DNA of 64,000 nt from Raillietiella orientalis (lineage: Eukaryota). Shown piece after piece: positions 12,655 to 61,500 of the stretch; the stretch's first letter is position 1, and the number at the start of each line of letters is the position of its first letter. Location of the stretch: assembly GCA_036172245.1 (NCBI GenBank), contig JAYWIR010000007.1, positions 4,898,001-4,962,000 on the forward strand, written 5' to 3'. The translations under genes and the position numbers were made by a program. The notes beneath the pieces are model-generated. The model saw only the letters and a program-made list of their open reading frames with translations. It was not told the DNA's origin and did not search any database.

Positions 12655-14916
12655 GGTGATTAAGAAAATGTCGAACAATTCAATGTTTACATTAAAAAGA
12701 TAGCATATGCATCTTAAGCTTGCATAGGGAGAACTATGTACCATGAGTCCAAAAAAAGTTTTTGCAATAACGTCTAGCAATAAAAAACGATTTCATTTTT
12801 GCATAACAGTGCTGCTGTTTCTTTCACGTTAGTCATTTACAGAATTTGTGGAAGGATTACTTCTGACTGCAAGTAATGACGTATTTTTTTGTTTATCTTA
12901 AAACAATAACTTATGATGGCTTTGCCCTAATTATGTATTATAAAACAAGAAAAATGCTATTTTGCTCTTCATCCGAAGAGAACGTAAACTAATGCTTCCG
13001 CATGGTAATTTGTGTGATTTACGACTACACTCTGGTATATAATGCTAAACGTCAATTGCACATCAGCTTGACTTGAAATTTAATATGATTACGATAAAGA
13101 AACCAATTGCATCAATCGGTTCAAGTTGTACAAGAAAGCACAGGCAGATTGTTCCTGTGGGAATGGTAGGCAACCAAAAGTACGATTATGCTCGCACACA
13201 CAACGTGCTGATTGTGCACTGTGGAAAAAAAAAACGTATTCACTTCAAGTCTCAGTAAATTTGACTTGTTTTTCTCACAAAAAGGTTACACATCATGCAG
13301 CTTAAGTATACAAAGATAGCACAGATGCCCTACCACACGTTACAGGAGGCTTACATCATTGTTTCACATAAGGAATTGAAATTTGTTTTCCCAAACATTG
13401 TGTGTCTACAGATTCACAGAGAGCTTTCATAAGGTTGTTTTTGTGAACTCAACTGCATGGCAAAGGGTTCTGCAAGAGCTGCTTCCTTTCACATGCGTCT
13501 GCCTCAACGATGTGACGTTCAGATTGCAAACATCCCACAATTTTTTTTGCGAATTTGAGAAACTTTTTTTTTTTTTTTAACGCAAACGAGATTGTATGCT
13601 GGAATCATAACTTTATCAGATGTATTGCACCTAAGGCTAATGCTCTTTTAGCTGGATGAGAGCATAAACCCCTTGAAATCTGTGTCTTCCAAGCGTCAGC
13701 GTACGGACTTATTTTATTCACGAAGAGATTTAAGCTTTTCCGGTACATCCCTTTACCCTTACTTATATTCTTATTCCAATTTTCATTCTTGCCCCTTTTT
13801 CTTTCAGCCTTCGCCATCCGTTTGGTATTCATTAAAGGGATATTTACCAACCTAAACTCCAACGATTTATGCTCCCGAAGCGCCATGAGACAATCATCGT
13901 AAAGTATGCTTCATATATAGTTCTTCTCAGTCTGTTTATTCTTAACTTCCCCAAGCTTGGGAATCCTTCTTTTGAGCTGGAACCACTCTTACTCAAATGC
14001 AAAATCAGCCATCAGACAGCAAAAAATCTTTTACGACAGCTACATGCATTAGTTTACGGCTTCGTATGGTCACTATAAACTTGAAATCTGATGTCATTGA
14101 TGGTCAAGAAATTGCAGTTCTGGTCCTGACATTGATGTCAGATTTCAAGACATTGATGTCCCTCTTGCTGATAATTTAAACAGCAGAGTGCTTCCTTTCA
14201 CGATTTGCGTAGCAAGGTTGCAACTTTAATCTTGTTGCATTCTAAGACGTTTTGAAACTCCTATTCCACGTGTGGAGCAAGGGCAGTTTTTCGAACCACT
14301 ATTCTCTATGTTGTATAAAGCTCATACGTTGCTATATACATAATTATGTGTACGTAAGTGAGTAGGTTGATATTTTTATTTTGCCCAGAAATTCAGCTTC
14401 TATCAAGCTTCTTGAATTCATTTGAGTAGTACCTTAATTAATGAGTTCTCTTAATGAAAACGTTTAAATCTATCGAAATAGTTTGACGAAAGAACAATGG
14501 AATCAAGGAAAAAATGTATATATATCTAATACTGTAAGTTTTTTGTTTTCGGTTGACGAGTTATTTTCTACGATGAACTCAGTTTCTTACTATGTAAAAT
14601 GTTTTTTTTCCTCAATATTAACTCTTATGGAATTTTCGAAGTTGGAATTCATGCATGCTCTTTTGAGTCAATTTTCTTAATTGAATTTATACTGGCTCAT
14701 TTTGCGAAACATCTTCCTTGTTTTAGCACATCACCAAATTTTGTGTTACTAAAAAGTCATCCAAATTTTTGATCCATACTTCAGTTTCTACAATGATCCC
14801 GTGCAGGCGAGCTTAGCAATTGAGTCCTTAGTTGCATGAGTCTTTAGTGCTGAAAGAGATGTTTTTAAGGCATTGTTTATGTATATTTATCATCAGATTT
14901 CTCATAATTCGTGAGG

Positions 14917-15012
14917 TGGATCATAATTTCGTCGAAGGGTTATCCGATTTATAAAGTGACAAGAAAGTACTATGTATTGTTTAAACATTTGAGAGATGTG
15001 AGTTTGTATTGA
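14917..15012 (+). pseudogene. Putative C-terminal 31 aa of a circovirus-like capsid protein
   Basis: Frame 14917-15012 reads WIIISSKGYPIYKVTRKYYVLFKHLRDVSLY*, resembling the last strand of circovirus-like capsids (Y.V..xYV.F+). It converges on Rep and is followed by AATAAA. Short, so the similarity is by eye only. Confidence 0.6.
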
Positions 15013-15042
15013 ATGTACACATAAATAAAGAGCAAAAAGCAT

Positions 15043-15693
15043 TTATTGGTCTACTTCATCATACGATGTGGAAGGTGGTGATAAGGTGGAAACTGAAGAG
15101 GTAGCAGGCGAGTCAGGGGCTGTTTCTGTCCTAGAGCTTGAAGAAACAGGCCATGGGAGAATGCTGCCATCTTCCGATAATTGCCAAGGAACTTTCTTAC
15201 TGAGACTATGGGTGGCAATGTTGTGCACAATCCATCTGTCGGTCGAAAGTTTGGCGAAGTCTGGTTGCCAGTTGGCAAAGACAATGATGTGAGGAGGCTG
15301 AAAATATTTGAGGCTGCCTTGGTATTTGGAATCAAATATGATTCCATTTTTAAGAGATTCTATGAAGCCGTACTGTACGTGCTCCATGTTATCCTTTGTA
15401 AAATCAACGACAATTATGCGTTCTCCGTTGTACAGGTACGCTGCATCAGCTTTCCGACAGCTATGCATGTAAATGGCGTCTCGTTTGAGAAACAGAAATT
15501 TCGCCATGGTCGTCTTGCCCGTGTTGCCGCAGGTATCATAATACAGTGGATTTTCCTGTGGTTAGGCTTGTGGCGGATGATGTCCAAGATGTCCATTTGC
15601 CATTGCTTGAGTTGTAGGCCAGCCATGGGGTTTGGGTGTTGTCGAGTGCGTGACAAGCGGAAGCATTCTTTAATAAAATTGATATTTTTCGAG
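15043..15693 (-). pseudogene. rep: CRESS-DNA Rep, SF3 helicase domain; 5'-truncated, one frameshift
   Basis: LKQWQMDILDII..PNHRKIH[W]YYDTCGNTGKTTMAKFL (Walker A, restored by adding one G near 15544), IIVVDFTK (Walker B), YGFIESLKNG..FDSKY, HIIVFAN (motif C), LSTDRW (Arg finger), then an S/T/P-rich tail. No HUH endonuclease motifs present. Confidence 0.9.
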
Positions 15694-16028
15694 TAGCAAT
15701 TGAGTCCTTAGTTGCACGAGTCTTTAGTGCTGAAAGAGATGTTTTTAAGGCATTGTTTATGTATATTTATCATCAGATTTCTCATAATTCGTGAGTCACA
15801 GTTAACTTCAAAAGCAGGATCTGAGTGCTTGGGAATCATTTTTCTGAGGCAACTTTGCATTTGTTTTGTCATTTTTTTTATTTCACAGTGATCACCACAA
15901 ACGAAATTTCGCTTCATGGAAGATAGGAGTCACACACGATTCCCAGGGCTCAGTCCTTTTACCTTTCAATAAGTTCACAGACAAATTTCCGCGGACTAGT
16001 TTTCTGAACTTAGTTGCCGTTCTTAATT

Positions 16029-17940: not shown

Positions 17941-20900
17941 TTACAATATAATTTTCATACTGACCATCATAACATTTGTATTCTCTTGTTTTTTTGTAAA
18001 AATACACTGGAAAGTTTCTGGATGAGAACCTCGTTTCTCTCTCCTGGAAAAGTCACCAGAATAATGGACCATTATTAATGTTCTTAACTCAGCATTCCAG
18101 GCAATAACAGGAGTTTCCATTTCCCTTTCTGAAGAGCTGCTGGCTGCAGAAGTGACAGGAGTATACCAGATGCACAACCTTTCATTAGCTACATTTGCAG
18201 AAACTGCAGGCAACGAATTTGCATAAGAAATCTAAAAATCATCACAGACTGAAAACAGAAATCTTACTGTGCTACTTACTTTATTATCTACACTGTTTGG
18301 TAAAAATTCTTGATCTGATGGCATTATATCACCATCCATATCTTCTGATACTGAAAGCTTGGTTTCAGATAATGTTCCAGGTAAGGACTCATCACAATGA
18401 ATATCCGCCTCCAGTAAACACTGGTGATGAATACAACTGAAACTATTAGATGGGTCACTTTCTATGAGACAAGACGAAAGATCGTGAATATGGACTTCAA
18501 TTTCTGGAAGGGTGTCTGTGCTTGCAGAGAATTTCTTTTCTAGTGAAGATAAGTCACCCACATTCAATGCTGATGCACTTGTAATAATCTCATCTCCATC
18601 ATAACCACAAGTAAAATGTTCTAGAGGTGTACTACTAAACACATTGTTGGAGATATCATTGCTATTAAAAATAGGATCTGTCTCTTCTTTTCTTAGTGTT
18701 TCCAAAGGAAACATACCATCAAATTTGGCATTGTGATTCCTTGAAGTATTATTGGGAGGAAAAAGTCCAAACAAGGAAAGAGGAGTGGATGATAATTGGG
18801 TCTGAGAGAGAAAAACAGAAAAGAGTTTCACTGTTCGGCAAAACGGGCACTGACTAAAGCTGGTGATTCTTTTGTTACCCTTTCTTCATCTGATTCACCA
18901 AAGAGAACTCTAAAAACTTCCTGCCACTGATTTTGCATTACACGTGGCAGTTCTCTTGTAAGTCGTTCTCGGGCAATTTCTAAGGACTGTGCTTTTTTCT
19001 GAAGACTAGTGGCAACTTTATGTTCCTCTTCAATCCTTTCTTGTAGCTCAGAAATGAACTTTTGATTTTTCTCTTTGAGCAATGCAATTTCACTTTCATG
19101 TCTGAACACAATACAAAACACAATGAATGTATTTATGTTGTAATGGAAAATTGGCAGCGTGAATAATGACTTTCTACAGATATCTTACACATATAGAATA
19201 ATGTTAAACATTGCTTCATGCATCACAAAGTGTTTACCAGTTGCTCACTTTGTTAAATAAAAGCAGCGAATAATACAAACTGCAAAGTTACTCACAAATA
19301 CCCTGTAAAACGTTCAACATACTCATAATTTAAACGATAAAAGCAAATAACTGAAAACACATGGTCAACATATTCTATAAAGTTATCACACTATTACAGT
19401 CTACAGTTCTCATAAAATCATTAGCCAATTACTTCAAATCAATTAGCAAATTTGAATTTCTTTATCCCTGTCCGTATGCTGTATCTGTATGCTACATCAT
19501 TATGAATACTAGATAGCAGTAAACAACATTCAAAAATACAGTAGCGCCTGTCATGCAAACCCAAATTGCATGTGTTATGCAGTCATAATGGATCACTTAC
19601 AGGGTCTAAATTTTATAAATAAATTTTAACATTACGATTAGAAATTTTTAATTGAGATGATGGTGATATAGAATTGCATACCACCAAAAATACATGAGAT
19701 GCATTCAATAATTCTTCACCATATTGCAATAATTATTATTTATATATTAATTTATTATTACAGAATTTAAATATCTCTTAAAATACCAGTTTATCTTATT
19801 TTGCTGTTATTCCTGAAAAATTCTGATGTCACCACATTACACCTAATCAACCCACTCTAATAAAATAATCTAATCAACTTCATAGGGAATTACCGTACAA
19901 AAACAATTTTTTTTTGTTGATTCACATTGTTGGATAGATACTTTAAATTTCAGCTTAGGTACTTTTATTCTCTGATGAACTTGTTTTACACAATCTTTAA
20001 TGAGTTCGCAAATAAATTGTAAACTTAATAAGGTATCCATTCATTCCCCTCGATATTTTCCTGATGGTTCATTTGAAGACATAATCACAGTGTGACATTT
20101 ACTTTGTTAACGTGCCTTCATTTTTCTTTAAACATTAATATATTTTTCTGTTTTACATTTCAAAAAATTTTGGATCATGAAGTGCGTGATAATTCAATTT
20201 AATTGTAAATTCTTCTTATGATTATTTACATTAAGCTAGTTGCCTTTTACCCTATTTTAAGATTTGAGCTAGGGACTGCAGATTTGCAGAAAAAAAATGC
20301 CAAAGGATCCCATAAGATTTCCAAATCAAGCTATTTTTTTGGATTCAGGATGCAACCACAAACTAAAAAAATAAACTAAAATTCCAAGACTAATTTGATT
20401 TGTAATAACAACATAATTCAAAATTAAAAAATAGTTCACTTAGAAATAAAAAATATGACCTGATTATTTGGTTCAAAAAAAAATTAATTAAGAAACTTAA
20501 GTTTAAAAAAAGAAATGAGGGATTTATTTGCAAAAACAAGACGAAGATGTTGACAACTTCGATGTACTTTGCAGTACCTTGTCCTCAAATCAATGGTTTC
20601 CTTTTCTAAATGCTTTTCAACTCTTTCTTTCTCTTTGAGATATTTGTCTTGATAAAAGAGTCTAATTTTGGATTCAATATTTTTGAATTCATGTTGTGCC
20701 TCTGACATTTTATCTAGTATAACTTTTTGCATCCTCTGTTTGTAGAATTCTTCTAAATACACCTTTTGTTGATTAAAACCATCCTTACACTTCGAGAGTT
20801 CCTTCTCAAATTCGGATAGCCTATTGGCCTGGAACCAAGAGAAAAAAAAAATTATCACTGAAATTCCACCATACTCAACCGATAATTATATAAAATTTCA

Positions 20901-30600: not shown

Positions 30601-30696
30601 TAGGATGTTGACTGGTGATCCTTGGCTACCTGAGCATTTGAGAATGTAAATTGTCAGTGAATTAAAGTGTCATGCTGGAATGATTTTTAAGTAACC

Positions 30697-33600
30697 ATGC
30701 CTAAGCACGAATTTGGAACTCCAAAGGACATTGCAAGACGCATGAAAGCAAAAGGCTTGCAGAAACTAAGATGGTATTGTCAGATGTGTCAGAAACAGTG
30801 TAGAGATGAAAATGGATTTAAGTGCCATACAATGTCCGAGTCTCATCAGAGACAATTACTTTTATTCGCCGATAATCCAGGAAAATATTTAGGAGACTTT
30901 TCTAGAGAGTTTGAGAAAGGTTTCCTGGATTTAGTTCGAAGACGATTTGGTACTAAGAGAGTGCATGCCAATCAGGTGTATCAGGAGTATATTTCTGATA
31001 GAGATCATCTTCATATGAATGCAACTTCTTGGGTTACTTTGACAGGATTTGTGAAATATCTTGGTAGAACAGGAAAATGTCATGTTGATCAGACAGAGAA
31101 AGGATGGTATATAAGATACATAGAAAGGTATATTTAAGGTTTTTATGTATGCCAGTAGAAAGGGTGTTGTGTGTACCAGCGGTACAGATTTTTTATAAGT
31201 TGCATTTAAACAGATCTCAAAAATTATGGGATTTCAAAGGAAAAATGGTGCTAATGATTTGGGGATTTTTTATGTCTTTATTTGCTCTGCTGTTACCTAA
31301 GTTTTGTTAACTGTTCACTTATTCATTTGTGAGTGACCTATTTGTAATGAATTATGCTGTTGTTTACATGAAAAAAATGTACTAATAATTATTTCCGTAT
31401 TATGCTTGCACCCGTAATCCAAACTTGGAATGGTACTGATTTTTAGAGACCCTGATACAATTGCGCGCCAAGAGAGACTAGCCAGGAAAGAAAAAATGGA
31501 AAAATGTGATGAGGAGCGTCTTCATGAGTTTATAGAAAAGCAGGTAACGATTAGCAGATCTAAGATTCAGTGTATAAGCAAGAGCAACAATTTGTATTTG
31601 TAATTTCATTAAAATTTAATTTCAATTTTAAAGTATTCAAGCAAGTTTCTTAATTTAAATAACTGTTGGCCTACTTTCCACCCATCAATTCAATCAGAGG
31701 AAACGTCTAAAATTGAGCTAGTTGTAAAAATGTATTCTGCGATGATGCTAAAAAGTAATCAGAACTTAGCATCCATTGCATTGGTATTCCAAGTATCCTC
31801 ATTTTTTAAAAGAACTTCTGGACATATAACATTCATATATTTGCAAAAATGCTATATAGTTTTGTCTTCCATGTTAGATACTGCATTTCTATAACCTAGA
31901 GTTAGAAAATATCACAAAGTATTACAATTAAATAATACCTTTTACATTGCCAATAAATGTTTTCTTTGATTGTAGTTATAAAGTTATATTGAGAAATAAA
32001 TTCTGAAATCACTTTTTTCCCCTGCATTACAAATATTAGCATTCAAAAACATATATTTGCAATGCTGGCGTATTTTAAGTAATAGATGACGTAATTAAGC
32101 ACATTTATCCTAAGCACAATTCTTAGTGCATTGTTTTGTAATTGAGTGCCAATTAAAATTAAAATTCTGTTCTTGACATGTGTAGAAACATGTTTTACAG
32201 TATGATAGATTTAAAGGAATTCACACAAATGCAATTCTTGTTAGGACCATGAAGGATCTTGTTTTCTTCCATGGTGTGTAGTCATTGATGGAAGAAGGTG
32301 TTTCTTGTATTGAATGGAAATTTGCTTTGCATTTCTGTGTATTCATAATTCACATTGCATGTTTAAATTTCAATTGTTTTTATTGGTTTTGCGTGTATTC
32401 ATTTTCTGTGTGACAGTCTGCTATGTGGAAGAAGAACTGTTTATACAATGCAGAACTGTTTTTCCAATTAGAGAATATCTAAAGATATTCTCTAATTGTA
32501 AAAGTTGAAATCATTAACTAGGAAAAGTGAAATTTTGTTCATTATTTTACTCAAACATAGGTAGCAAGTGCAACCAACAGTTTTTCTTTTGTATTTTTCC
32601 TCTTTCTGTGGTACATTCTAAAATGTGATTTCCATGACTTGTATGTTTTTTATTCATTGTTTTGCAGCCTGTTGCCAGTCTTTGATTGCAAGATGTGTAT
32701 TTTTCTGTGTTACTGTCTTAGAATTACATGTTTTCTGATTACATGGTGCATGTGTAAGGTGCTACAGGTGTGGTGCATGTGATGCATTGCTAAAAGATTT
32801 TCTATATACGAGAATTACTGACGAATTAAAGGATTTCTGAAATGCTTGCAAGTCTGTTTGGGGATTTGTGGGCATTTGGGAATGTTATCAGAATAAACTT
32901 TAATCAGAGTAAAAGAGTAAGAGTTTCAAGTGCATTGATATATTCAATGTAATGGTCGTCTGACTACCTGAAGTAAATAAATCTAGAAAAGAAAAACATT
33001 TCATGTATTTTAAATATACCTAAACTATTTTGTGATACTGTAAAATGTAGGGTGGTATGTTTTCCTTGCTGTTGGCCATTTGAGTTTTCAGAATGTATAA
33101 AATCTTAGAGCTTTTGATCTTCTGGAGTCACAAGAATTTAAGGTTTGTATTTGCTGAATAAGTTTTCAAGTTTCTTCACATTAGTTGACAATTTACTTGT
33201 TAATGAACAGACATAAGTGACAGAACATGACAATTAATTTGCATCATAATTGACTTTTAAAACAAAATAGATTGTGTTGCATTGTTGTCCAAAATTGAAA
33301 TTTCAAAAAATTTATTGAATAAATCTATTAGATTCTCATGATGAATTACCTGACCTGTAATAAAAATAATATTTTGAATGAGGTGATAGTGATGAAGTAA
33401 ATTTAAATATCAATTGCAATTTATTGTTAATGTAGTATTTTTTATTGTTAATGCAGTGTTCTTTATATGTTGGATTTTTAGATTCTACTATAAATCCAAA
33501 AGCAGCAAAATAAAATGTGAGCTAATTTTTGTGAGCATCTTTTCTTTCACCATACTAGAGTGTTAAAATCTTTAAAATAGCTAATGGCTCATCTTATGTT

Positions 33601-47310: not shown

Positions 47311-48353
47311 CAAAAAAAAAAAATCCACTTGAAATATTAAGTTTCAGTAATAGCAAGCCAATCAAGTATTCTACAGTTGCAAATAGAGAACTGGATCGTA
47401 CTTTAAGGCCGTTCCATTCCTAAAATTCGCATGAGTCGATGCCAAAATATTTTAACACTATCAATACCAATTTATCCAGAACAAAAAAAAAGACACGAGA
47501 GTGTTCCAGCGTGAAATGTGAAAGTGCAACATAAAAGTTGAAAGAAACAACCCAAAGTCATCTGACACACAAAATTGCCGACAAATGCAAAAGCGATTTC
47601 AGCAAATCATTATTATCATGGATTTTTAACTAATTTCTTCTACCTTCGTGGTTAGCATAGAAACAACTCAGGAGTATACAGACATATGATAGATATTTGA
47701 ATCCACAATAAGTAATATAAGTTAGTTTATTTGTTTGCACGCTTCTTACGATTGGAACTCTTTAGGAATGACATTTCTTATCATTCAGTTTTTTGTATTG
47801 ATGAGAGAGCGAGTTTTTGTATGAAACAGTTTACAATCAGAACTGTGGAGAGAACTGTGATTAAAAGTTTCAAGCTTATGAGCTGAGAAGCAAAATAATC
47901 CTCTAAATCTTGATTTTTTGTTCATCTCCGAAAACTTTCTCGTCTTTGGTCTTATCTCTGTATGAATTTTGAGACTCGGGATGAAGCATCAAGCATTTAG
48001 TTTCTAAGCAATACAAAAGGAAAAAAAGAGACAATTAGATGCTTACATTTGTGATGCTATCTTTTTTTTTACAGAAACATCGGAAAGCTAGCAAACATGC
48101 AAATAGGACCCATGCTAAAAAAAACAAAGACAGACGCATTATTATGCACCATATGTCTGTGACATTTTTCTTTTAGGGAACTATCGAATATTATCTGAAC
48201 AATGTATAGCGATTTCTAATTTTCCCCAGGTCCCAATTTGGGTGGGGTAAATTTATTTTTCAATTTTTAACACACATTCATACCACAATCACATTCACGC
48301 TTCTGGCACTATATTACCACTTTGAAGTCCTTGGGGTGTCACAAGTTCTTCAC

Positions 48354-51300
48354 TCAGGGTGGGTTTCCAGATGTTTGGTCCCGGTCGTCATCCTCAATCC
48401 TCTTCAGGATGAATCGGTACGTCCATGCTTGGAGTCGTCCACAGTTCCTGATGCCGATTTCCTTCTTGATGAGTCCTTGCAGGATCTCCATCGAGGGTGC
48501 GGCTCTTCTCGCTTTCCTCATCTTCCACCACCGCACAAGTATGGCGGTGATGAAGAGAGCAATGGTCGTCCTCACCATGGGATTGTAGCAGGGAACATTA
48601 CCATCTCCCTGAAACATTCCAGCGAGGATCTCCATTGTGGAGCTGGTGGTGAGTCCAATGATCCTTTTCAGGATCAGCCAGTCGTATAGCAATGTGGCAC
48701 ACGTCAAAATATGTAATCTTGTGTCAATGTCACCACATGCCGTGCAGTCTTCGTCTTCCCGTCTTCTAGTGTCGTGCTTTAGCCTGGACCCGCTCTGGAA
48801 TCCTCCGTGATAGAACATCAGGAGGTTGTCCTGGGTGTCCGGCGGAAGGTCACTCCTCCAGAGCGTCGAGCCGATCGCTAACAGGTTGATCCTGTCACTC
48901 CCGTAGCGATCGGCGGCTTCTTGGAGGGCACTGGTGTCTTGATACTGGTCCTTGATCATCTTCCGGAGGTTCATCTTGGTTAACCTAGACCACGCGAAGT
49001 CGTTGTGGTTTATCCACACTTCGCGGGTCTTCTGGGTGAACCTACCTTGCATCATCTCTATATACCGAAGTATACGAGTGCGATGTAGGTATCCTCCTCG
49101 TCGCCATTCCTGGATTCTATGCAGAGTAACTCTGGGCCGCTGGTAGATCCAGCTTCTCGTGTTCGGAGGGACCGGAAGCATCCACGGGATCACCAGGATG
49201 GATTCCTCCTGCCAGAGTTCCCTGCTTCTCGGCACAATCTTGATCTTGTGCTTGCGCACCAGCCGTTGCTTTCTCCTCCAGGTGGGGTCGATGTTGATCC
49301 ATTCCCCTGCTCGGCCTAGCAGCGCAGTCATTAGGCCTTTCGAGTTGTTCAACAACAACGCGTAGGCCCTATGCGCCGCGTACGGCCAGTCATCCCAGTG
49401 AGTAGCGATATCTAGGATGTGTCGTGAATCCATGATTTCCATGGAATGTGCAAGCGACTTCATCCCAGAACCGCCCTCTTCCCTGGGGCGACACAGGGGT
49501 TTTAACCTTACTCTTAGGCGATAATGCCCTCACAGTGTCTTCTTCTGCAGCTTTTCTACTTCCCTGGAGTTCTCTTTGTTCATCCTGGCGAAGGCCGCTC
49601 CGAAGAGCGCCTTTGGAAGGAGTACTCCATTCCAGAGGTTGGCCTTTCGCTTCATGCCAAAGTCCAGTCGGGTGTACTTCGCTGCTTCTTTTGCCGTTTT
49701 CCCCAGGATTTCCGTCCACAGTAGCTTCGACGCAGAGTCGTCGCCGATGTAGACTCCCAGGTACTTGGCCGCGTCCACCGTTCGGAATCCTCTCCCCGTG
49801 AGAGCGGAGAGATCCAGGATTCCGACGGGCAAAAACTGGCTCTTCTGGGCGTTAACCTTCAGGCCCAGTCCTTCTTCCGTTAGCGTCATCACATCCAGGA
49901 ACGCTTGCTGATCCCTCTCTCCCTTAATGAAGAAGAGGAGATCGTCTGCGTAAGCGAGGTGGGTGAGCTTCTGGCCGTGGATTTCCATACCCCGTAGTCG
50001 CTCGCTCTTCTCGATGAAAGAAGACAGGGCCTCCATGTAGATAACGAACAGCATCTGACTTAGCGAGTCGCCCTTCCGAACTCCCGTGCCATCCGAATGG
50101 CTGCTGTTTCTACTCCGTTGATCTTGATCCGGAAACGTTGATTCCGGAGGATCATTTCTACGAAGTTGCTGAAGTATTCCGGAAGTCCTAACTTTTCCAG
50201 AATCTTCAGCAGCCTCCCGCGATCGATGGTGTCGAAGGCTTTCTCCATGTCGGTGAACGCCAGCACCAGGTTCTCGCCGACGTATCGGCTAAGTCCCACG
50301 GTGGCCTGCGCGCACTTGACATTGTCCGACATGTGGCGTCCGGGTATCGCACATGTCTGGACGGGAGAGATCAGCCTCGACATAACCTTGCCTGAGCGGT
50401 TGGCCCAGATCTTTGCCAACTACTTGGCATCTGAGTTAAGGATTGAGATTAGCCTCCATTGGGCTATCCTGGATAGGTCGCCTCCTTTCGGCAACAATCT
50501 CGTCCTGCTCTCGTAGAAGGACTCCGGCAGTCGTCCTTCTTGTTGGATGCAGAGGGTCAGCTGGTGGAATAAACGCAGGTAGGCGTGCAGGTACCGCTGA
50601 TAGTGACTGATGGGAACACTGTCAGAGCCTGCCGCCACATCCTTGCGTAATTTCTGAAACGCAATCTCCACCTCTTCCTCGGAGAAATCCTCCTCCAATC
50701 ACTTCCGTTGGAGGTCGTCAATCTTCTTTTCAAGATGGCTCAGGAAGGTCTTCTGTATCGCCTGACACAGATGTTGTTGCCGGAAGTGTCCTGTAATGCC
50801 TTTCGAAGGCATCCACGATGTCCTCCGACGTGTGTCGGCTGTGATCGCCGTACTGGATATGGAAGATATCTATGGACAGATTCTTTTTCTCCAGCACGCC
50901 GACTTCCCCTTTTTCACTATGGAAGACGTACCAACTCTCCTACTGATTGGAGTACTTTGAAAGGGAACGATCTTGGTTGTTCAGCTCCCGGTACGCCTCC
51001 TGCCTCAGTCTCTTGTCGCCCAATTTCATATTTGCAAATAAATGGATCCTGTGCTTCAGGCTGTCCCAGTCGGCGACTCTTCGGATGGTAGTGGTCTTCA
51101 GAATAGCCTCCAAAACCTCCTGATGACAGGGATGGATCTCGAACCAGGCGGGCATGCTGATGAGCTCCGCCCTGGTGCCTTGCCTCCGCCGGGGATTTTC
51201 CGTCCTTAGGGAAAACCGCACCAACGGGTGATCCGACAACGTGGTGAGCGTGTCGCGAAAATCTTAAATGCGGTTCCCTAGTTCGGTGCTGTGAAGGACG

Positions 51301-51849
51301 TGGTCGATCAGCTTGTGGCTAGCTCTTCGCCACAGCAGCACGAACTCGTCGGACAACCGCCGACACGACGTCCTTCCTCTGGCGTCCTGGGAATGGGTGA
51401 ATTCATCCAGGATGTTGAGATCGCGAGCGACGATCACGACGTCCTTGGGCGCGACCATTGCTCGGAGTGCTGCATGCAGCGCCTCCGCACACCGATGTTT
51501 TAATCTGTGTGGCCCGTACACGCTCACCAGGAAGAGGTGAACGGTAGCGGACCACGCGACCCGGCGAGGGACAGAAGACTTCCAGAATGGTGGGGTCCAG
51601 GTGGTTCTTGATCAATACCGCCACACCTTCCGTGTTCCGCCGTCCCTCGCTGACGACCAGCTGCCCATCGAGGCATCGTTCCATTTGTTGGCTGATCTGG
51701 AGATCCAGCCTGTGGGTCTCCTGCAGGCACACGATGTCTTGAAGTGCGATGGTCTGCACAATCCTTTTTCTTTTCTCCTGGTCGATCAATCCATTTACAT
51801 TCCAGGAGGCGATGTTGTTCCTCCTGGCGGTCGATAGAGACGAGGCCAT
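48354..51849 (-). pseudogene. Retrotransposon ORF2 (APE-RT-zinc finger) with several frameshifts and stops
   Basis: IASWNVNGL, DIVCLQETH, GVAVLI, SVYGP, IDHVL, SDH (APE); LLPKGG..WRLISILNSDAK, DMEKAFD, GVRKGDSLS, LAYADDL, KYLGVYI (RT); CTACGDIDTRLHILTC (C-terminal zinc finger). Confidence 0.93.
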
Positions 51850-51888
51850 AAAGGGGAAGACCTATTTCTTGGCCTCCCTGAGCTTCTT

Positions 51889-53627
51889 CTATCTGGGAGA
51901 GCGTGGTGCTTTCGCAGAAGAAGAAGGAGCGGGCTTCTCGCTGCCAGCGTCGCTCTCCGTCCCGGTGAAGTCGGTCTGATCGGCTTCTCCGGTGGAGTGC
52001 TCGGCTCGTGCGACGAGCTCACGAGGTAATACCTCCAACGCAACCTTGGTGCAGAAGTTTGCCTTTACGTCGAGAAGCTTTTCCTCCAGCTTCTCGCGCT
52101 CTGCAGCCTCTACCACCTGGTTGACGGTTTCTTGCGCATTGCAGATTTTCTGCAGCATTTGCTCCTGCTGAGCTCCGCTTTGCGCCTCTTCCACTTCTTC
52201 AGCCAGTCTCTCCACCACTTCGGTGGTCTGCAGGGTATCCTGCGACACCGGGGTGTGTTCTGGCACCTTCGCCACCTCGCCTTCCTCCGCAGCCTCCATC
52301 CTCTCGCCTTCCTCTGCCGCTACTTCCGGGGTAAGTGGAGTTTCCTGCTCCTCTACGAGCATCTTCCTCTTCCCCTTCTCTCTCACTGCTACGAAACCGT
52401 CCGCCGAAACCGGAGCGGCCTCCTTCGCCTTGCTCAGCTTTATTGCCTTCTGAGGTTTCACCACCTCGGTCAACGCCTTGTCCCGCACGGGGAACTGGCC
52501 ACGCATAGTCCGGTAGTTGGCATACTCCGGACAGCACCACTTCGCATGCCCTGGCTGCTTGCAAAACGAGCACACCTCGGGCATGTCGCAACTGCGCACC
52601 TGGTGTCGCTGCTTCCCACAGCGGATGCAGCGAGACCTGGGCAGGCGGCCAAACGATGCCCAAAATTTTTGCAACCTGTGCAGAACACAGGTTGTTGTCT
52701 ATAGTTGACGGAGACCTCCTGTGAGTCACCGTCGATGTGCACGATCCCCGGGATCTGTGCGCCCTCTGCCATCTTTAGTTTGGCGATGACCTCGCCAGAA
52801 AAGATATTGCCAGCTACGTTCTGGAATGTCAGCTCCAGAACCTCCCCAAATTTGGACAAGGAGTCCCACACATTGAGTTGCGTGGTGGTGAGTCCCACGC
52901 CCCTCAGCAGGACGGTCGTGTACGGCATTTCGCCGATACCCCGGACCATCCTTACCTATATATTGATGTCCGTTTCAATTAGGGCCTCTCGCAGGGGTTC
53001 ACTATCCGAATAGATGGTGAACCCCGACGTACTTGGGATTATCGCCTGAATTCTGTCAAAGTCTCTATTTGTCTTGTAGAGAGACAAGTAGACTTCTCTA
53101 ATGTTGTTGAACCGGATTAAGCTGGTTTTGAAGGTGATGGACTTCACGTTCCGACCCACCCGAACGTTCGGCTCGTCCACTCTAGCCAGTTTCCCACACT
53201 CCGGCTTGCCGAATTTTCTCTGCTGCTGGGCACTAGCCTGGCCCTCCGCCACCACCGCGTACGAAAACGGCTGCACCGCGGCAGCCGAGCAAGATGGCGT
53301 CGCGCCCTGCACGCCGTTCGCCACGCGGACGCCTGCGGATACCACCAGGGATGGCGCCGCCGCCGCCGCGGGCGCGACCCTTGGCATCACCACCGCCAGC
53401 GCGACAACTGCCGCCGCCAGCGCGATCCTTGGCGTTGCCTCTGCCTCGCCATCGCCGTACGTTGCCTCCATTGCCATGGGGGACGTCGGCCTCTCCGTCG
53501 CTCCTGCTGCCTGCATCCTCGCGGCTGGTACTGCCGCTGGGGAAGTTGGCAGGGCTTCCACCGTGGACTCCTCCGCGCTGCTGCTGCAGGTGTTGCAGAT
53601 GGTCCTCGGCTGCACTATCACTCGCAC
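51889..53627 (-). pseudogene. Retrotransposon ORF1 (RRM-like region plus three CCHC zinc knuckles)
   Basis: ORFs 52956-53627, 52470-52949 and 51889-52674 join through one in-frame TAG and one frameshift. Knuckles CTGCKNFGHRLAAC, CIRCGKQRHQVRSC, CSFCKQPGHAKWC(C). True start may lie further upstream. Confidence 0.85.
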
Positions 53628-56600
53628 TGCTGTTTACTTATAACTTGCCCTCTCGGGGCACACAAAAATTGCCGCGGCAGTACTTTGTTGTTGTTGTAGT
53701 TGGGTAGTTGCTTCGCTCCTGTCCTCGCTGAAGGCTCAGTGGCTCAAAGGATCGGTTCCCTCACCCCGACCCCCAGAATTGTTTTGCACTGAACTCCCGC
53801 CACCAACTCGAAGAACTCGCTTGTACTTTGTTTTCCTTGCTTGCTGTTTCCAAAACTGTTTCCAAACCGAGATTTCCTCGTCTTCCTGAGCCAACGAGGC
53901 CGCGTCATCCGGTATTTCTGCCTTGAAACGACCGCAAACAGCACACAAAATTCACCTGAACGCACCGGTGCGCACCGAAGGGAAAACACGTCCGTTCGAG
54001 GCAGCCAAAAGAGAAGCCGCCCGCGGGAGCCACAAAAAGACGTCGGAACCCGCGACCCGAGCGAGTTGCGAAGGCAACCGTCCGGTCCGAAGGCAGGCGT
54101 GCGGGTTGTGGCGAACTGGGCGCTTCGCGGACGTGTGCTTTCGCTGGCAGGGCCGTACTCGCGCGTGCCATGGCGCGCCAGCTTGACGGCGACCGTCGCC
54201 CTCCGGAAGGCGAACAGGAGCACCGATCCGCCTCTTGGCGTACGCTTTACGCGTACAGCATGCTCACGCACCTCGCACACCCGGCAGGCGAACGCGCGGA
54301 CTGTGTCCCCGCAGGGCACGCACCCGTGACCGGCGGAGCGTGTTCGTCAAGAACGCTGCCCACCGCGCCTGCGCCGTTGCGCAACAGCGCAGCCACGCAC
54401 ACACGTCCACGCGGAGCAGCTCGCGCGACTGCCACCAGCCATGCTCGCAAAGGCGGCGACCATCTTGTCCTCCCGGGAAGTTGCCCACAGCCAACTGTGA
54501 CTGCCTGGGACGATCAAAGGAAGGACGGCAGACGCCTCGGTCGGCAAAGGCCCTCGGTGCCCGACATTTGCATATCGTGCGGGGAAGAGAAGGAGGCAAC
54601 GATGGAGGGCAACGCGCAGAGATCGAGGGGAGAGGTCAGGCTCCTCGTTACACCCGTAAGGCTGATGGCTTCGAAAACGCCGGACAGCCAACTTCAAGGT
54701 GAACATCGCGCGACTACGTTGGGTCGACGCTGCTATCGATATCATCTCTCATTATGGGACTAGCACTGTGATCCTGTCTTGGGTTGCTGCCAACACTTTT
54801 TTGCTTGAGAGCCCTACACGTCTGTGAGCACGATTGCGGTTAAAGACTTTCACAGGTGGTGTGGAGATTCCGATGGCGGTGCGCAGCAAGAATCGCTACG
54901 ATTTCCCGACGAAATTGACTCTTCTTCCTCTTCCGGATGCTGTTCTCGCTTCCCTGGAAACTACAAGAAAACGTTCGAGTGTGGAACACTGCAGCCACAG
55001 GCCCCGCAGAATCAGGTTGATGGAATACGTCTGCCACTACTACTGCTGTCGTCAGCACAGAGAAGTGCTTTGAGGGAACGTCACCGACGCAACCGCCGGA
55101 TAGACGCTGAATGCAAATCCTCGAGTTGGCGCGTTCAACATTCAAGAAGGAAGATTTCCGAATGCGAGTGGCTCTCAGAGGTGCTTTCGCGGATTGCTGC
55201 CGTTGTTGGTGCTTTGGTGCCTTTTCCCGAGATGCTGCCGTTCCGTAATGAAGCAATTTCCTAAGGAGCATTTGTGAAAATCACAGCAACAGCGTCGCTC
55301 CATGCCGCCACGATCCCGCGTAGGCAGCATACGTCACGTGGAATGCCAACCACCATCCACCCTACTGCCTGACCTAGCGAGCGACGTGTTTCAGGTCCTG
55401 GGGCTGGACTGTGTTTTACCGCATGCCGGTGTCTCCTTCAGCCCACGGACGACACGCGTTCTTTCACTGCACTTTTGGTTCTCTCCGCAACAGATGAACT
55501 ACGGTTTCGTCCTCGTCAAGTTCAGACTTTTGGCTTTTTCTTTTTCTGCATCCATTTTGAAGTATCCTAAGAACACCGAATACTGCGAGACGGAAAACCG
55601 TTGCGCTTGCTCCATTGACACGCGATCGACATGGTACGGAGCGGCGACCTGAACGAAAGATGTAACCAAGTGGAGTGTTCCCTGTAGGAACAGTTCTCAG
55701 CTGTCCTCCTCTCTGGATGAGCACACTCATCCTATCGGTCGCGCCAGCAAGGAGGCGCCCGCATGTACCAGCTTGCACGGAACGAACAGAGAATCGACGT
55801 CTGCACAGCAGTACCAAAAAGAGTCGATTCTTTGGTAGTGCAACTTTAGCTCTGGCAGTGGTTCGATCGGGGGCAGCCGTGCGAGCAGAGTGCATGGCCG
55901 CTTCTTTCGAGCGTGGTCTCGTAGCGGTCGTCGCCCTCTCTTCTTCACCGGTGCGAAAGAGGTGCCATCGTCACGTGAGTTTAGGTACAGCATCGATTCC
56001 TGTGCTGCTCGCGCCACTCGAGACTGATGGATGAACCCACTGGAGAGTGCTTCACTCAGACCGACCTACCCTAAGAGATGCCACCCTGAAAAAGAATTCG
56101 AAAACGCATCCTTTTGGCGAACATCCGACGGGTGCACCGTGGACTGCGCACCACTCACCAGCATCGTGCTCACGAGCCTGCTTGCCGTTGTTGCAGGCGA
56201 GGAGGATGCGTTCCTCCGAAGGACCGTGTGTCTCCGGGAACTGCTGCCGTGCTGAAGAAGAAATTCGACGCCAACCGCGCCATTTCCGATCGTCGCAACT
56301 CACATGTGCTGCGTTGCAGAATGCGTGCACTGACGCGGACGGTGGGAGGGGGGGGGGGAGATGGCGCGTGCACGCTTCACGAAAACGGACACATGGTACG
56401 GATGGATGGTACACACGCCGATAGACGAAAGCGTGAAGCAGCAAGTCAACCAGCGGGGTCGATTCTTTGCGAGAATCGGGAAAAAGAAAACGAGGTTTCC
56501 GCAAAAGGCTGCAGTCGGGTTGTTTGGCAGGTTTGCGTGCACCACTGTGCACACCACCGGGATGAACGGGCACCCGCCGAACGCGTTGCACGAGAGCGTG

Positions 56601-56964
56601 CTCGGTGGATTGCGTGACGTCAGCACGGATTGTTTGGCAACCATTCTTGTTGCTTAGCAATGGAAAGTTTTTCTTGAAGCGTCTGTTGATTCTCGGATCG
56701 ACCTCGTGGGTTTCGTGGAGCAATCGGAGCATCGCACTGCTGCTGAATCCATTGCTCATCTACTTGGACGTTGCTTGTTACTCGGGAAGATCGTAGAAGG
56801 TAGCGAATCTCATCCGCAAGTAATTCGCTTCTCTGCGTATCCACAGCCTCGGATTCGCTTCCCAATCTAAACGGGAAGCGATTGTTATCCCTCTCCATTT
56901 TCTGCGCATCTGGTGTATCCTGCGTCAGGGGCATTGCAGAAGATTTGTCGACTCGAGGACCCGG

Positions 56965-58575
56965 TTGCGTCGAGAGAGCGGAAAAGCTGTTCGACAAGCA
57001 GAGCTGAGGATCGGTAAGATGAATGCGACCTTCTTGAGACTGTGCATGACTCATGACTTGTGCATGACTCCCAGGTCGAGTGCGTCCTATTTGAAAAGCA
57101 TTGCGCTCAGCTTGCATTCGTCCAGGACAATCTCCCTGTGGCTGGGGCAGGCGGAACCCCATTGCCCGGAGAGCCAAGCTTGCAATCGGACAGAGGACAG
57201 CCAGGTACCGTTCGGAAAACCGTCTCCGGTTTTTGCCGTTCCTTCTCAGCAAACGGAAGAGGATTGGCCTTTCAAGATGGATGCCAACTCCAGAAGGTGG
57301 CATTGGTCCACTCCGGAGATGGACGATCGGAAGTGGAATGGAATGCAGGTAAGAGGGAGCAGCGAAGGCGAGGACACGCTGTGTTTGGAGGAAACTTCCC
57401 CGGAGGCGCGAGAAAGCAGGTGGTTCTCCAAAAGAAAACTGACGGCGGCAGAGAAGGAGAGCCTGAAAATCCAAAAGCGAAATAGGGATGCCATCCGATG
57501 TGCGAGGAGAGACCAAAAGAAGTTGAATGCTAAGCTGATGAAGCTAAAAAAGAAGGAAGAAAAACAGTTTCCGAAACGCAAAACGGAGCAGGATGAGGAA
57601 GGTCCAAAGTGGAAAAGTTGGGATTGGTCCACTTCGGAGATGGACCATCGCAAGTGGAATGGGATGCAGGTAAGAGGGAGCAGCGAAGGCGAGGACACGC
57701 TGTGTTTGGAGGAACCTCCCCCGAAGGCGCGAAGAAGCAGGTGGTTCTCCAAAAGAAAACTGACGGCGGCAGAGAAGGAGAGCCTGAAAATCCAAAAGCG
57801 AAATCGGGGAGCCATCCGATGTGCGAGGAGAGATCAAAAGAAGTTGAATGCTAAGCGGAGGAAGCAAAAAAAGAAGGAAGAAAAAGAGATTGCGAAACGC
57901 AAAAAGAAGCAAGATGAGGAGGGTGAGAAGCAACGCAAGCAGCATGGCGTGGAAAAGCCAAAAGCTCAGGCCCAGAGGAACACGGCAGAAGAGGGAGCTG
58001 CGAAAAGCGAAATTGTCCCGGGGGAAGAGGAAGGAGCTGCAGGAACCAGCAGTGCTTTGAGGGAAGATGGTGGACGCAGCAAGGCGCCGAACAAGCGATT
58101 CTCATCACGTGGATTCATGGCTTGCCTTCTACTGTTCAAGCACAAGAAAACGTTGGAAGAGGTGGCATTGCCCTGCTTGGGAAGTAACCAGCAAACGAAC
58201 CCGGAGGGTTCGTCCAGAACGCAAACCGGGAACGCAAGCAGCAGGAATGTGGCACGGGAGAAGCAATTAGCCGGTTTTCCTCAGGTCTACGGGGCGGGAT
58301 TTGAGGAAAATGCGGACAGCGACCCCGATATTTGGAGAGCGGCGGTCAATTCCCCGGAAATCACACCGTCTCGAGGAAGCGGAGATATCGGCAGAGGCGG
58401 CGTCCTCGAACCCCTGACAGAAGGACCATCCGAAGATGCGTTCTTCATCAGTCGAGGAGTGCAGTGCGGCGGTGCGGAATCGTTCCATCGGTGCGCGCGA
58501 GGTTGGTCCAATCGGTTTTCCTTTCTGCGGGCCCACCCATGCGGAGATTCCACGTCCCGCGCGTCGCTCATTTGA
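56965..58575 (+). CDS. Unknown K/R/E-rich protein with a 107-aa tandem duplication (true start and splicing uncertain)
   Basis: 536 open codons; the repeat preserves frame. Candidate 45-nt intron 57205-57249 and candidate terminal exon 58617-58804 followed by AATAAA. Confidence 0.55.
   Translation: MRRESGKAVRQAELRIGKMNATFLRLCMTHDLCMTPRSSASYLKSIALSLHSSRTISLWLGQAEPHCPESQACNRTEDSQVPFGKPSPVFAVPSQQTEEDWPFKMDANSRRWHWSTPEMDDRKWNGMQVRGSSEGEDTLCLEETSPEARESRWFSKRKLTAAEKESLKIQKRNRDAIRCARRDQKKLNAKLMKLKKKEEKQFPKRKTEQDEEGPKWKSWDWSTSEMDHRKWNGMQVRGSSEGEDTLCLEEPPPKARRSRWFSKRKLTAAEKESLKIQKRNRGAIRCARRDQKKLNAKRRKQKKKEEKEIAKRKKKQDEEGEKQRKQHGVEKPKAQAQRNTAEEGAAKSEIVPGEEEGAAGTSSALREDGGRSKAPNKRFSSRGFMACLLLFKHKKTLEEVALPCLGSNQQTNPEGSSRTQTGNASSRNVAREKQLAGFPQVYGAGFEENADSDPDIWRAAVNSPEITPSRGSGDIGRGGVLEPLTEGPSEDAFFISRGVQCGGAESFHRCARGWSNRFSFLRAHPCGDSTSRASLI
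57298..57924 (+). repeat. Two-copy tandem repeat, period 321 bp
   Basis: ATTGGTCCACT starts at 57302 and 57623; both copies encode W.WST.EMD.RKWNGMQVRGSSEGEDTLCLEE...RWFSKRKLTAAEKESLKIQKRNR.AIRCARRDQKKLNAK...QDEEG. Confidence 0.95.
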
Positions 58576-61500
58576 ACCCGCACACTCATGGACGATGTTG
58601 CTTCTCTCCATTGCAGAGAAAAGCTGGCAAAGAATTTTCGCGGCGTTAGAATCCATCGTGGGACGGTTGGAGGATGCAGCTATCAGGCTGGAGGCTGCTT
58701 CAACAACGGTGGACCAGAGTGGAGAGGAAGGGCACGGGTCGGCTTGCGGATGCCCAACTCCAGAAACCCTGAGTGTCGGAATCCCGGAAGAATATGAGGA
58801 ATAAATAGATGTTCTATCGAAACAGATAAATGCATTATATACACTATTGTATTATATATTATTATTATATACGGATATAAGTTATTCTAATATGTTTCTA
58901 GATAGATATGCGTGCGAATGTTCGTTGTAATGTACATTCATGTGTGTGTAGTATACAGAGTATCAAAGATTACCAATTGGACTTTGGATGCCTCTTATGT
59001 AGCCTGGGGATTGTGGTGAGGTCGCACGTTGCCGTTGGACGTACACGATCTCCACAAGACAAAGTTCAAATGTCGTTTTGCATCCCGTTGAGCAGCAGAG
59101 CGTCGCTGCTGTGTATCCTAGCAAAAACTTACAATTTCAATAAGAAACTTACAATTCCCTGTTCAGGTCGTGGTTCTCTTGGGCGTGAGGACCATAAATC
59201 ACATTCCGTTCCGTGAGCTTTCTTCTGAAGCATTGCTGAACGAAAGAAATCTCTTTTACCGTGGAACTCCAGCACTTTCAGAAGTTCCAGTCTGACCTCG
59301 GGTTCTTCGAAGAGTTGCGTAGAGACAAGGAAAGATGGAATCTGATGAAGATGGGTGTGCGTATCAAATTTTCAGTTACTCACGAAATCCCTTGTACGCT
59401 GTTTTTCTGTACGAATTGGTTTTCTATCCCTTCCGTGCATGATGGTTTTAAGAAATAAGAATGCCTTTGTTTGGACCTCGTTTTCCAGAGACGCTCATTG
59501 TCTCGGCGATGTGCTAAATGATAAGTGCGTAAGGGAAAAAGCTGACTGCCGTAGGCATTTCTTTTTCAAAGAACAACAACTCGTAAGAAAACGGATGACA
59601 GAACGGAGCCTTTCAGTTTCTGTTTCGATAACTGAAGAAGTGGTATTTCAAGAAATCGACACCCTCACTTGGTGATCATTTTTTGATGCGTGCGTGTTCG
59701 TGTTTTTTGATACGTCCCGCATGCAGTGGAGGGGAATGCAATTTGCATACACATACACAGCAGCACGTGGTCAAGTCACTTCCTGTATCATGGCCGAGCG
59801 ATAGAGAACTATTCTTGCTCGCTTCCTCAAGGAAGAATGCCTCCCTGTAGGAAAGGAAAGCCTGAAAGAAACTACCAGCATCCCAACTCACTGCCCACTC
59901 TACTGGAAGGTTTTCCTGGAGACGAGGTTCCAGGCGAGCTTCTCGGTGGGACGCAAGCCGGACAAGACGAACTTCCCTGATCCTGCAAAGGATTCAAAGC
60001 CACGACGTAGAAATTTCTGGATGCAACAGCTAGCGGATGACGGAGGGTGTCCAGCACATGCCAGATCGCGCAGTGGCTTGGCGGCTGCGGCCAAACGCCC
60101 GTCACTCGAAAACCTTTCTGCCCATTGGTCGAAATAACAGCCAACAACTAATATTGCTTCCTAATGTAGGTGTTCATTTCATTTCATAGGTAGTTCGAGG
60201 GACTAAATCCCTAAACTGCAAGCAAGCAAAAGTTCTAACCTTTCGAAAAGGGGAACCAGTGGAGGAGACTTGCATTGCCGAGGATTAGAAGCTCGAAGAA
60301 TCAAAAGGGCGGAGTAAACGGCGTTCCAAATGATCGACTTGTGCCGTCGTCGCCATTATTCCTAGGAAGCAGTCTTTAGAATGCTACCACGTTGATTGCG
60401 CCAAAAGTTAACCCACCCTCAGGTAGCAGAGCTTGAAATTTGAGGGATGTTGATCCATCGGCTGTGTCGGAGGGACGTTGTCTTTGACGAAAAGATTGCA
60501 AATGCGGTAGATCTGAGGCTCTCAAGTCAACCCAACAACCAGGGCATTGCTGATTGGTCTTAGCCTCACAATAGTGCTTTGCTTTCGTGCACAATTCTTT
60601 GTGAGAAATGTTCCCTTGTCGTCCATGCTCGTGGGCACGACTCTCAGATGACACACAAACCCCAAGTATCCTTTAACTGCACATGAGTCTACAAGTAGCA
60701 GGTGAGTAGGGGCTTAGGTTTTCAATGTCTTGAGGTATTTTCAATGTCTAGCACAAGTGTGAGATGGTCTTCAACTCTGAAGAATCTGCGTTGCATGCTT
60801 GGTGTGAATTTAACTCAAAGGAAAACAGCGTTTACTGCGTATTTCATAAATTAAAGCTCAAAGACGATTGAGACAATAATCAGACAGGAATAAAAACGAA
60901 GAAACGAAATTTCAAGAGATCAAAACAATAAGTTTTCAGGTTTCAAGTAAATGCTTTCAAGAAGTGCGTTTAAAATGCAAAATCACTGCTAACAAATTTC
61001 TCCTGTGAAAGGAACTAAATCCAAATCATGTGCCAATTACTGGTACACGAAAACATTAGGGAAATAAAAATCATGACCAAGGAGATTGAGAATTTATTAT
61101 TAATATTTTAAGGAACCACTTTCGCCTTTCAGATCATAGCTCATAGTTATTCTCCTGTTCGTGCTCATCCGACATTTGGGCTCATGCAAGAGTTCATCCC
61201 TTTTATCACATTTCACTCATCACTGATGACTAGTGGTAGACCTCTCAACAAACTTGAGCACTTATCAAGACATTCTAGTTTTTTTTTTTTTTCTTAAAGT
61301 ACACCTTTATCATGCTTTAATCATCTGAGAGATTTTCGTATGGCTACAAATTAGTTAGTACATCAGGTTATGTACAATATGGATCATGCTGAGCCTTGAA
61401 TTTTTCTTATAATCCTACCCTCACAGGTTTAAGGCTCACTTCTGAGGTATTTTGGATCATAAATGAGTCAAGCTTTAAGGAAACTTTCCCATAAACTTCT

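Follow-up and report, generated by a model that had tools for sequence, protein, structure and literature searches.

The locus and its surroundings

The window, that is, the whole stretch of 64,000 nucleotides that was analysed, contains a 778-bp piece of viral DNA, with a copy of a 102-bp direct repeat abutting it exactly on either side. The features of the locus are as follows:

14814–14915, no strand: left copy of the direct repeat (R1), 102 bp, GC 0.32, host-like in composition and read as duplicated target
14916–15693, minus strand: insert, one uninterrupted stretch (778 bp) from the genome of a CRESS-DNA virus, exactly repeat-bounded; GC of the Rep part 0.45, against 0.34–0.38 in the flanks
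14916–14935, no strand: start of the insert, within which a 12-nt imperfect match to the end of R1 may represent filler or homology at the junction
14917–15012, plus strand: candidate capsid C-terminus of weak similarity, 31 codons and a TGA stop (15010–15012), converging on Rep
15013–15042, no strand: 30-nt spacer between the stop codons, with AATAAA at 15024–15029 (plus strand)
15043–15561, minus strand: Rep frame B (P0001), 172 codons, SF3 helicase with a Ser/Thr/Pro-rich tail and a TAA stop overlapping AATAAA (15047–15042)
15540–15561, minus strand: zone of a single frame shift between frames A and B, marked by the overlap of the frames and a contiguous profile match
15540–15693 within the insert (whole frame 15540–15707), minus strand: Rep frame A (P0002), linker/oligomerisation region with the stretch WQ...HRKIH before Walker A
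15694–15795, no strand: right copy of the direct repeat (R2), identical to R1 at 101 of 102 positions

The helicase motifs, the 1-nt lesion, the convergent plus-strand frame, the 30-bp gap and the AATAAA signals on both strands all lie where the initial annotation of this DNA had placed them; the 102-bp repeat and the loss of the HUH nuclease half of Rep are absent from that annotation. The viral part is joined on both sides to AT-rich flanks, and its non-Rep tail of 127 nt has a GC content of 0.31. On the same 64-kb stretch lie a KIN17 exon at 30691–31137, 15 kb from the insert (E 1e-68 over 144 residues against human KIN17), and a non-LTR retrotransposon at 48–53 kb, and the host is taken to be an animal. 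An Rfam scan of the window at the gathering threshold returned 0 matches. A plus-strand frame of 171 codons at 15181–15696 runs antisense to Rep and is regarded as an antisense frame of the kind that coding regions usually leave open.

The Rep fragment

On its minus strand, 14916–15693 encodes the linker and the SF3 helicase, which make up the C-terminal half of the Rep of a CRESS-DNA virus. A Rep profile of 320 positions, built from 29 relatives with the window's own row left out, matched frame A at positions 142–194 (E 3.3e-4) and frame B at positions 195–310 (E 1.7e-55); since this match is far beyond chance and contiguous across the two frames, the fragment represents the last ~55% of a Rep, interrupted by one frame shift. 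The same match bears out the earlier description of the locus as a fossil of a CRESS-DNA virus Rep helicase. Frame B contains GNTGKT (Walker A), IIVVDF (Walker B), ESLKNG, IVFAN (motif C) and DRW (arginine finger), and in the 30-sequence alignment, which includes the window's row, all 16 of the 16 invariant columns are kept. In frame A, the Rep homology begins about 4 nt inside the insert boundary, and the WQ...HRKIH stretch could be aligned by short-query BLASTP (E ≤ 10) in 38 of the 150 best relatives, with a best E of 0.002; in most of these 38 relatives, it stands just before Walker A. Pfam RNA_helicase scored the fragment below threshold (16.9 bits against 21.5).

The Rep portion thus defined has about 225 codons, one frameshift and no in-frame stop. 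The HUH nuclease half (profile positions 1–141) had no match in any of the six frames of the 64-kb window, so that the fragment is part of a Rep and not a full Rep; elsewhere in the six-frame window, the profile found nothing better than E 1.3, and the window holds no second Rep-derived copy. Because the HUH half, the start codon and the origin are absent and a frameshift is present, the fragment cannot replicate or make a Rep protein and is inert.

Relatives and placement of the helicase

Among 1.84 billion representatives, a search with P0001 yielded 6108 relatives at E ≤ 1e-3, of which 2308 reach E ≤ 1e-10; the best of them are 42–50% identical, and none exceeds 50%, in agreement with the earlier suggestion that the virus is possibly undescribed. 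When 12 top hits were compared with Pfam (E ≤ 1e-3), Viral_Rep was found in 10 and RNA_helicase in 7, which likewise upholds the reading as a viral Rep; the clusters of the tested top hits come from metagenomic contigs of 1.5–5.7 kb, a single one of them being named, and an atlas look-up of the helicase led to Cressdnaviricota. The top hit itself, P0003 (E 3e-54), was rejected as a close relative, its score arising from two tandem helicase-only units, each 41–43% identical. Single-protein scans found no close relatives in viral contigs or metagenome contigs, nor any of P0003 in genome contigs. Word-index homologue searches with the fragment alone returned nothing, and named relatives emerged only from an alignment-based search; they include two nanovirus master Reps with 46% and 42% identity.

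The initial annotation had described the helicase motifs as closer to nanovirus-type Reps than to those of Circoviridae. The resemblance holds, since a nanovirus M-Rep is 46% identical to the helicase over 99 residues (E 1e-25), whereas PCV2 Rep is not matched: phmmer with P0001 against all PDB sequences gave no match at E ≤ 1, PCV2 Rep included. The M-Reps of Nanoviridae (Sophora yellow stunt virus, P0196; parsley severe stunt associated virus, P0201) share the style of Walker A, Walker B, motif C and arginine finger seen in frame B. The circovirus Rep (PCV2, PDB 7lar) belongs to the same overall protein family, and the relatives' profile matched it in the nuclease half only (E 4.6e-29). In passages of Liu et al. 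2011 (PMC3198968), helicases of the nanovirus-like type are likewise separated from those of the circovirus-like type.

The tree does not extend this resemblance to family membership. A maximum-likelihood tree of 78 helicase domains over 127 columns, obtained by a quick search and poorly resolved, has two nanovirus Reps as its references, circovirus sequences not being among its rows. In it, the window's row has a branch of 1.46 against a median of 0.55 and falls inside no starred clade, and the two nanovirus M-Reps form their own starred pair on the other side of the tree. Membership in Nanoviridae was rejected on the position of this pair in the poorly resolved 127-column tree, and membership in Circoviridae on the lack of a match between the helicase and PCV2 Rep. 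By its sequence, the helicase would be nanovirus-like rather than of the circovirus type, in the sense of resemblance and not of membership in Nanoviridae.

Genome layout and capsids of the relatives

Of 79 IMG/VR loci, 46 are ambisense, 31 are unisense and 2 have no second ORF of at least 150 aa. Ranked by tblastn E-value, the top 11 loci (L001–L011) are all ambisense, as expected from the earlier proposal of an ambisense source. The 3'-3' gap is at most 96 nt in 22 of the 46 ambisense loci, and AATAAA is rare behind the stops of these loci, following that of rep in 6 of the 46, that of cap in 6 of the 46 and both in 0 of 46, which counts against the proposed reading of the insert. Nanovirus components are unisense circles of about 1 kb with one gene each, a layout that a converging coding tail such as that of the insert would not fit.

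One capsid family, recognised by BLASTP, is common to L001, L002, L004, L005, L006, L009, L010 and L016, all of them within the top 16 loci by tblastn E-value. These eight unclassified ambisense cressdnaviruses are the best complete-genome relatives of the helicase (35–50% identity) and are circles of 2.0–2.4 kb in which rep and a capsid gene converge; the insert corresponds to about one third of such a genome and has no supported grouping with them in the tree. Their capsids have arginine-rich N-termini and a strand-plus-basic motif at the C-terminus, which the peptide of the insert resembles, and six of the eight match Pfam Circo_capsid (PF02443) below its cut-off, at 24.9–32.8 bits against 36.2. 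A Rep-guided scan for further members of the family added one, L081; the 8-sequence capsid alignment is too divergent for use as a scan query. Because the relatives are ambisense and six of the eight shared capsids are Circo_capsid-like, a nano-like Rep with a circo-like capsid is a description of real relatives. The initial annotation had proposed this pairing for the insert. The pairing stands for the relatives, while for the insert the peptide is only weakly similar and has no Pfam match; passages of PMC5923481 report chimeric Reps as common in unclassified CRESS viruses, so that the pairing is not unusual.

The plus-strand peptide

The plus-strand frame that converges on Rep is of unremarkable length, as 753 of 5734 stops in the host part of the window (13%) follow at least 31 sense codons; within the 127-nt tail, one minus-strand frame is likewise free of stops. 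Searches with the 31-residue peptide against Pfam gave no match, and its score against 125 non-Rep ORFs (at least 150 aa, from the first 80 IMG/VR relatives) was equalled by 82 of 200 shuffles. An HMM of the full capsid family aligned the peptide at the wrong place, with 0.3 bits. When the comparison was restricted to C-termini, in tests that were designed after the motif had been noticed and are thus partly post hoc, the best local score of the peptide against the last 45 residues of the eight capsids was 32, reached by 42 of 1000 shuffles and 10 of 735 host ORF ends, and the summed score was 167, which 9 of 1000 shuffles and 2 of the 735 host ORF ends attained; an HMM of the C-terminal block gave 1.8 bits, which 131 of 2000 shuffles and 23 of the 735 host ends equal or exceed, with the last ten residues of the peptide in the expected register. 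For four other capsid families, shuffles reached the mean score in 285–946 of 1000 cases. The similarity to the C-termini of one capsid family therefore appears weak but specific, with p of about 0.003–0.065 depending on the test. The profile comparison proposed at the outset has thus given nothing in Pfam but a weak C-terminal similarity to the capsid family of the relatives. It is plausible, with somewhat better than an even chance, that the 31-residue peptide is the C-terminus of a capsid gene; if the first ~20 nt of the insert are partly junctional filler, only about 25 of its residues would be viral.

The flanking repeat and the junctions

The two repeat copies differ only by T at 14837 against C at 15717, and no further copy of the 102-bp repeat occurs within the 64-kb window. 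The repeat appears to be host target DNA duplicated at insertion, a reading that is adopted because of its host-like GC, its lack of Rep- or origin-like features and parsimony. Its GC of 0.32 is like that of the host flanks and also like that of the 127-nt viral tail. At the left junction, the first ~17 nt of the insert contain an imperfect copy of the end of R1 with 11 matches and one gap, equalled by 23 of 5000 shuffles; at the right junction, there is a 4-nt match only, and 1234 of 5000 shuffles do as well. As distinct from a CRESS genome, the insert is chromosomal and linear: none of the 21 window matches to a ANTATTAC-type nonanucleotide falls within 14814–15795, and a search for a hairpin between the two stops found nothing notable (z −0.59).

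One public DNA run that shares a small part of its sequence words with the window, X1, contains an identical contig of 209 bp from the left flank (14475–14683) at a depth of 2.26; at this depth of ~2, no contig of the run bridges either boundary of the insert. The run also holds look-alikes of the insert, one of 15104–15175 with 9 differences in 72 positions and one of 15657–15689 with 2 in 33, and their depths of 2.8 and 4.9 are near that of the flank contig. These look-alikes may be paralogous insertions. The single difference in 102 bp, whose 95% range is wide, together with the nearly intact Rep frame, suggests that the insertion is young.

Mode of capture and alternative explanations

The initial annotation favoured capture of viral DNA over retroposition, and the present results agree with it. 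No A run is found at the minus-strand 3' end of the insert, the insert extends 127 nt past the poly(A) signal that overlaps the Rep stop, and the flanking duplication is 102 bp long; because of these three features, capture as DNA fits better than retroposition, and the imperfect copy of the repeat's end at the left junction is a further point in its favour. A processed, LINE-mediated retrocopy was rejected, there being no poly(A) tract and the duplication being far beyond the LINE type.

The following history is proposed. A contiguous piece of 778 bp of the double-stranded replicative form would have been joined to the chromosome by host break repair, and reverse transcription would not have been involved in the insertion. 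The captured piece would span the 3'-3' junction of the viral circle and would consist of the 3' part of rep, ~225 codons long and complete with stop and poly(A) signal, followed by the 30-nt spacer and probably also by the last ~25–31 codons of the converging capsid gene. On insertion, 102 bp of host DNA would have been duplicated, either when a break with widely staggered ends was filled in or when replication switched templates and came back to the chromosome 102 bp behind the point at which it had left. That the locus is a viral DNA fragment captured by host repair, with the host target duplicated, is regarded as probable as a whole. The insert is most probably an endogenous viral element captured as DNA, a kind of fossil that is already well known, and there is good confidence that its source was an undescribed ambisense cressdnavirus lineage.

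Three other explanations were weighed. The 778-bp piece could have been copied, through a DNA-level template switch or break repair, from an older resident Rep-derived sequence, either a multi-copy or a longer endogenous element. The two diverged look-alikes in run X1, with depths near that of the flank, are consistent with such a resident family, as is the long terminal branch of the fragment, which has no supported neighbours; however, a long neutral residence would not predict one frameshift, no stops and the retention of all invariant columns, the X1 contigs, being short, may just as well stem from independent insertions or from virus, and the 64-kb window contains no other copy. A secondary copy of this kind is considered unlikely.

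Greater-than-unit-length, tandemly repeated DNA related to geminiviruses occurs in plant genomes, and with this precedent the repeat could itself be part of the inserted DNA, with 14814–15795 covering 1.12 times the length of a defective or satellite-like circle of 880 nt, as a greater-than-unit-length product of rolling-circle replication. The start-to-start spacing of R1 and R2 is 880 nt, and the GC of the repeat equals that of the viral tail; yet the repeat carries neither a nonanucleotide of the origin type nor a match to the Rep profile in any frame, its composition is as in the host flanks, and the viral piece is contiguous around the 3'-3' junction, so that two separate deletions would be needed for the molecule to keep its origin as well. 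This origin of the repeat is judged very improbable. That viral reads of the sample were stitched into the contig as an assembly or contamination artefact is considered highly improbable, for although neither junction is bridged by a read or contig in run X1 at its depth of ~2, a stitched contaminant is not expected inside a near-perfect 102-bp local duplication with one substitution, and the viral piece is truncated and frameshifted rather than a genome end.

Relation to known elements and significance

With capture of viral DNA by host repair as the preferred reading, the insert joins a well-populated class of elements. According to passages of PMC3198968, fossils of Reps from circo-, nano- and gemini-like viruses occur widely among eukaryotes. 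Like the endogenous circovirus-like and CRESS Rep elements described there and in parts of PMC3205384, the insert is a truncated and frameshifted piece of Rep in host DNA. In the opossum, a circovirus-like rep is accompanied by a short cap-like piece in the opposite orientation, and the passages of PMC3205384 concerned read this element as an integration of genomic DNA, possibly by NHEJ; the rep of the insert is perhaps likewise followed by a short cap-like piece in the opposite orientation. Capture of viral DNA by host repair is proposed for circovirus-like elements in the same source, which also dates those of carnivores to tens of millions of years. Compared with the endogenous circovirus-like elements described in these passages, the insert has a nanovirus-like helicase and an unusually long duplication of 102 bp, and it looks young. 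In passages of PMC5923481, chimeric combinations in general are described as common among unclassified CRESS viruses, and according to the abstract of PMC7493932, endogenous viral elements were used as genomic evidence that ties lineages to the hosts Entamoeba and Giardia.

In other respects the insert is a small viral fossil of an ordinary kind that shows no sign of function, and it is of modest interest for its apparent youth, its 102-bp footprint and a possible host link for an orphan clade. The exact 102-bp duplication would provide a clean footprint for the entry of non-retroviral DNA into chromosomes. A young fragment with at most 50% identity to any of the 1.84 billion representatives suggests that an unsampled lineage recently reached the germ line of this animal. 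Most CRESS-DNA viruses have come to light solely as metagenomic circles and have no assigned host. It is possible, though doubtful, that the insert was recently captured into the germ line from an undescribed ambisense lineage that still circulates and infects this animal or its close kin, in which case the copies in run X1 would be repeated integrations; if true, this would give a first host to an orphan clade that combines a nano-like helicase with a circo-like capsid and has so far been represented by environmental contigs only.

Top database match of the insert

The top database match of the helicase frame in the viral insert, P0003, is a predicted protein that consists of two helicase-only Rep units in tandem without a nuclease domain; it looks like a Rep-derived repeat. 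Its source is labelled as a Methylococcales MAG, in which it lies on a 3.9-kb contig; possibly, eukaryotic or viral DNA has been binned there with a bacterial genome. When the genome contigs were scanned for P0003, it was not recovered.

Short motifs and open frames at the insert

The features discussed below are as follows.

Features of the window
15181–15696, + strand: 171-codon open frame, antisense to the Rep fragment
18232–20885, − strand: open frames that resemble exons of a gene for a coiled-coil protein; weak, sub-threshold Myosin_tail match
30691–31137, + strand: single long KIN17 exon, coding for the protein's N-terminal part (zinc finger and winged-helix domain)
within the 48000–59000 block: non-LTR retrotransposon on the − strand, with RVT_1 at 49530–50288 and an upstream ORF
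51889–52698, − strand: that upstream ORF, with Cys/His knuckle-like motifs
56824–58575, + strand: 583-codon open frame in which a stretch of ~110 residues is duplicated internally

The frame antisense to the Rep fragment is taken for one of the open frames that commonly occur on the strand opposite coding sequence. The origins of CRESS viruses are flanked by short direct repeats, and for this reason two imperfect ~13-nt copies of GAGTCnTTAGT type, which lie side by side at ~14822–14851 within the 102-bp direct repeat bounding the insert, are noted here; they are probably due to chance. The CRESS origin-type nonanucleotide ANTATTAC occurs 21 times in the whole window against 10.9 expected, a count reached by none of 100 shuffles; every match lies outside the insert, and the excess probably reflects AT-rich repeats.

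Host sequence around the insert

The block at 48000–59000, which holds the retrotransposon, is GC-rich (0.49–0.58 vs ~0.30 elsewhere), and long open frames run in several phases across 53–59 kb. The duplicated block of the 583-codon frame is rich in Lys, Arg, and Glu, and Pfam gave no match to this frame. Since the viral insert lies ~2.5 kb past the last visible frame of the coiled-coil protein, it may be located in an intron or the 3′ flank of that gene. The KIN17 exon matches human KIN17 (PDB 7abh) over 144 residues at E 1e-68, a similarity that marks the host as an animal.
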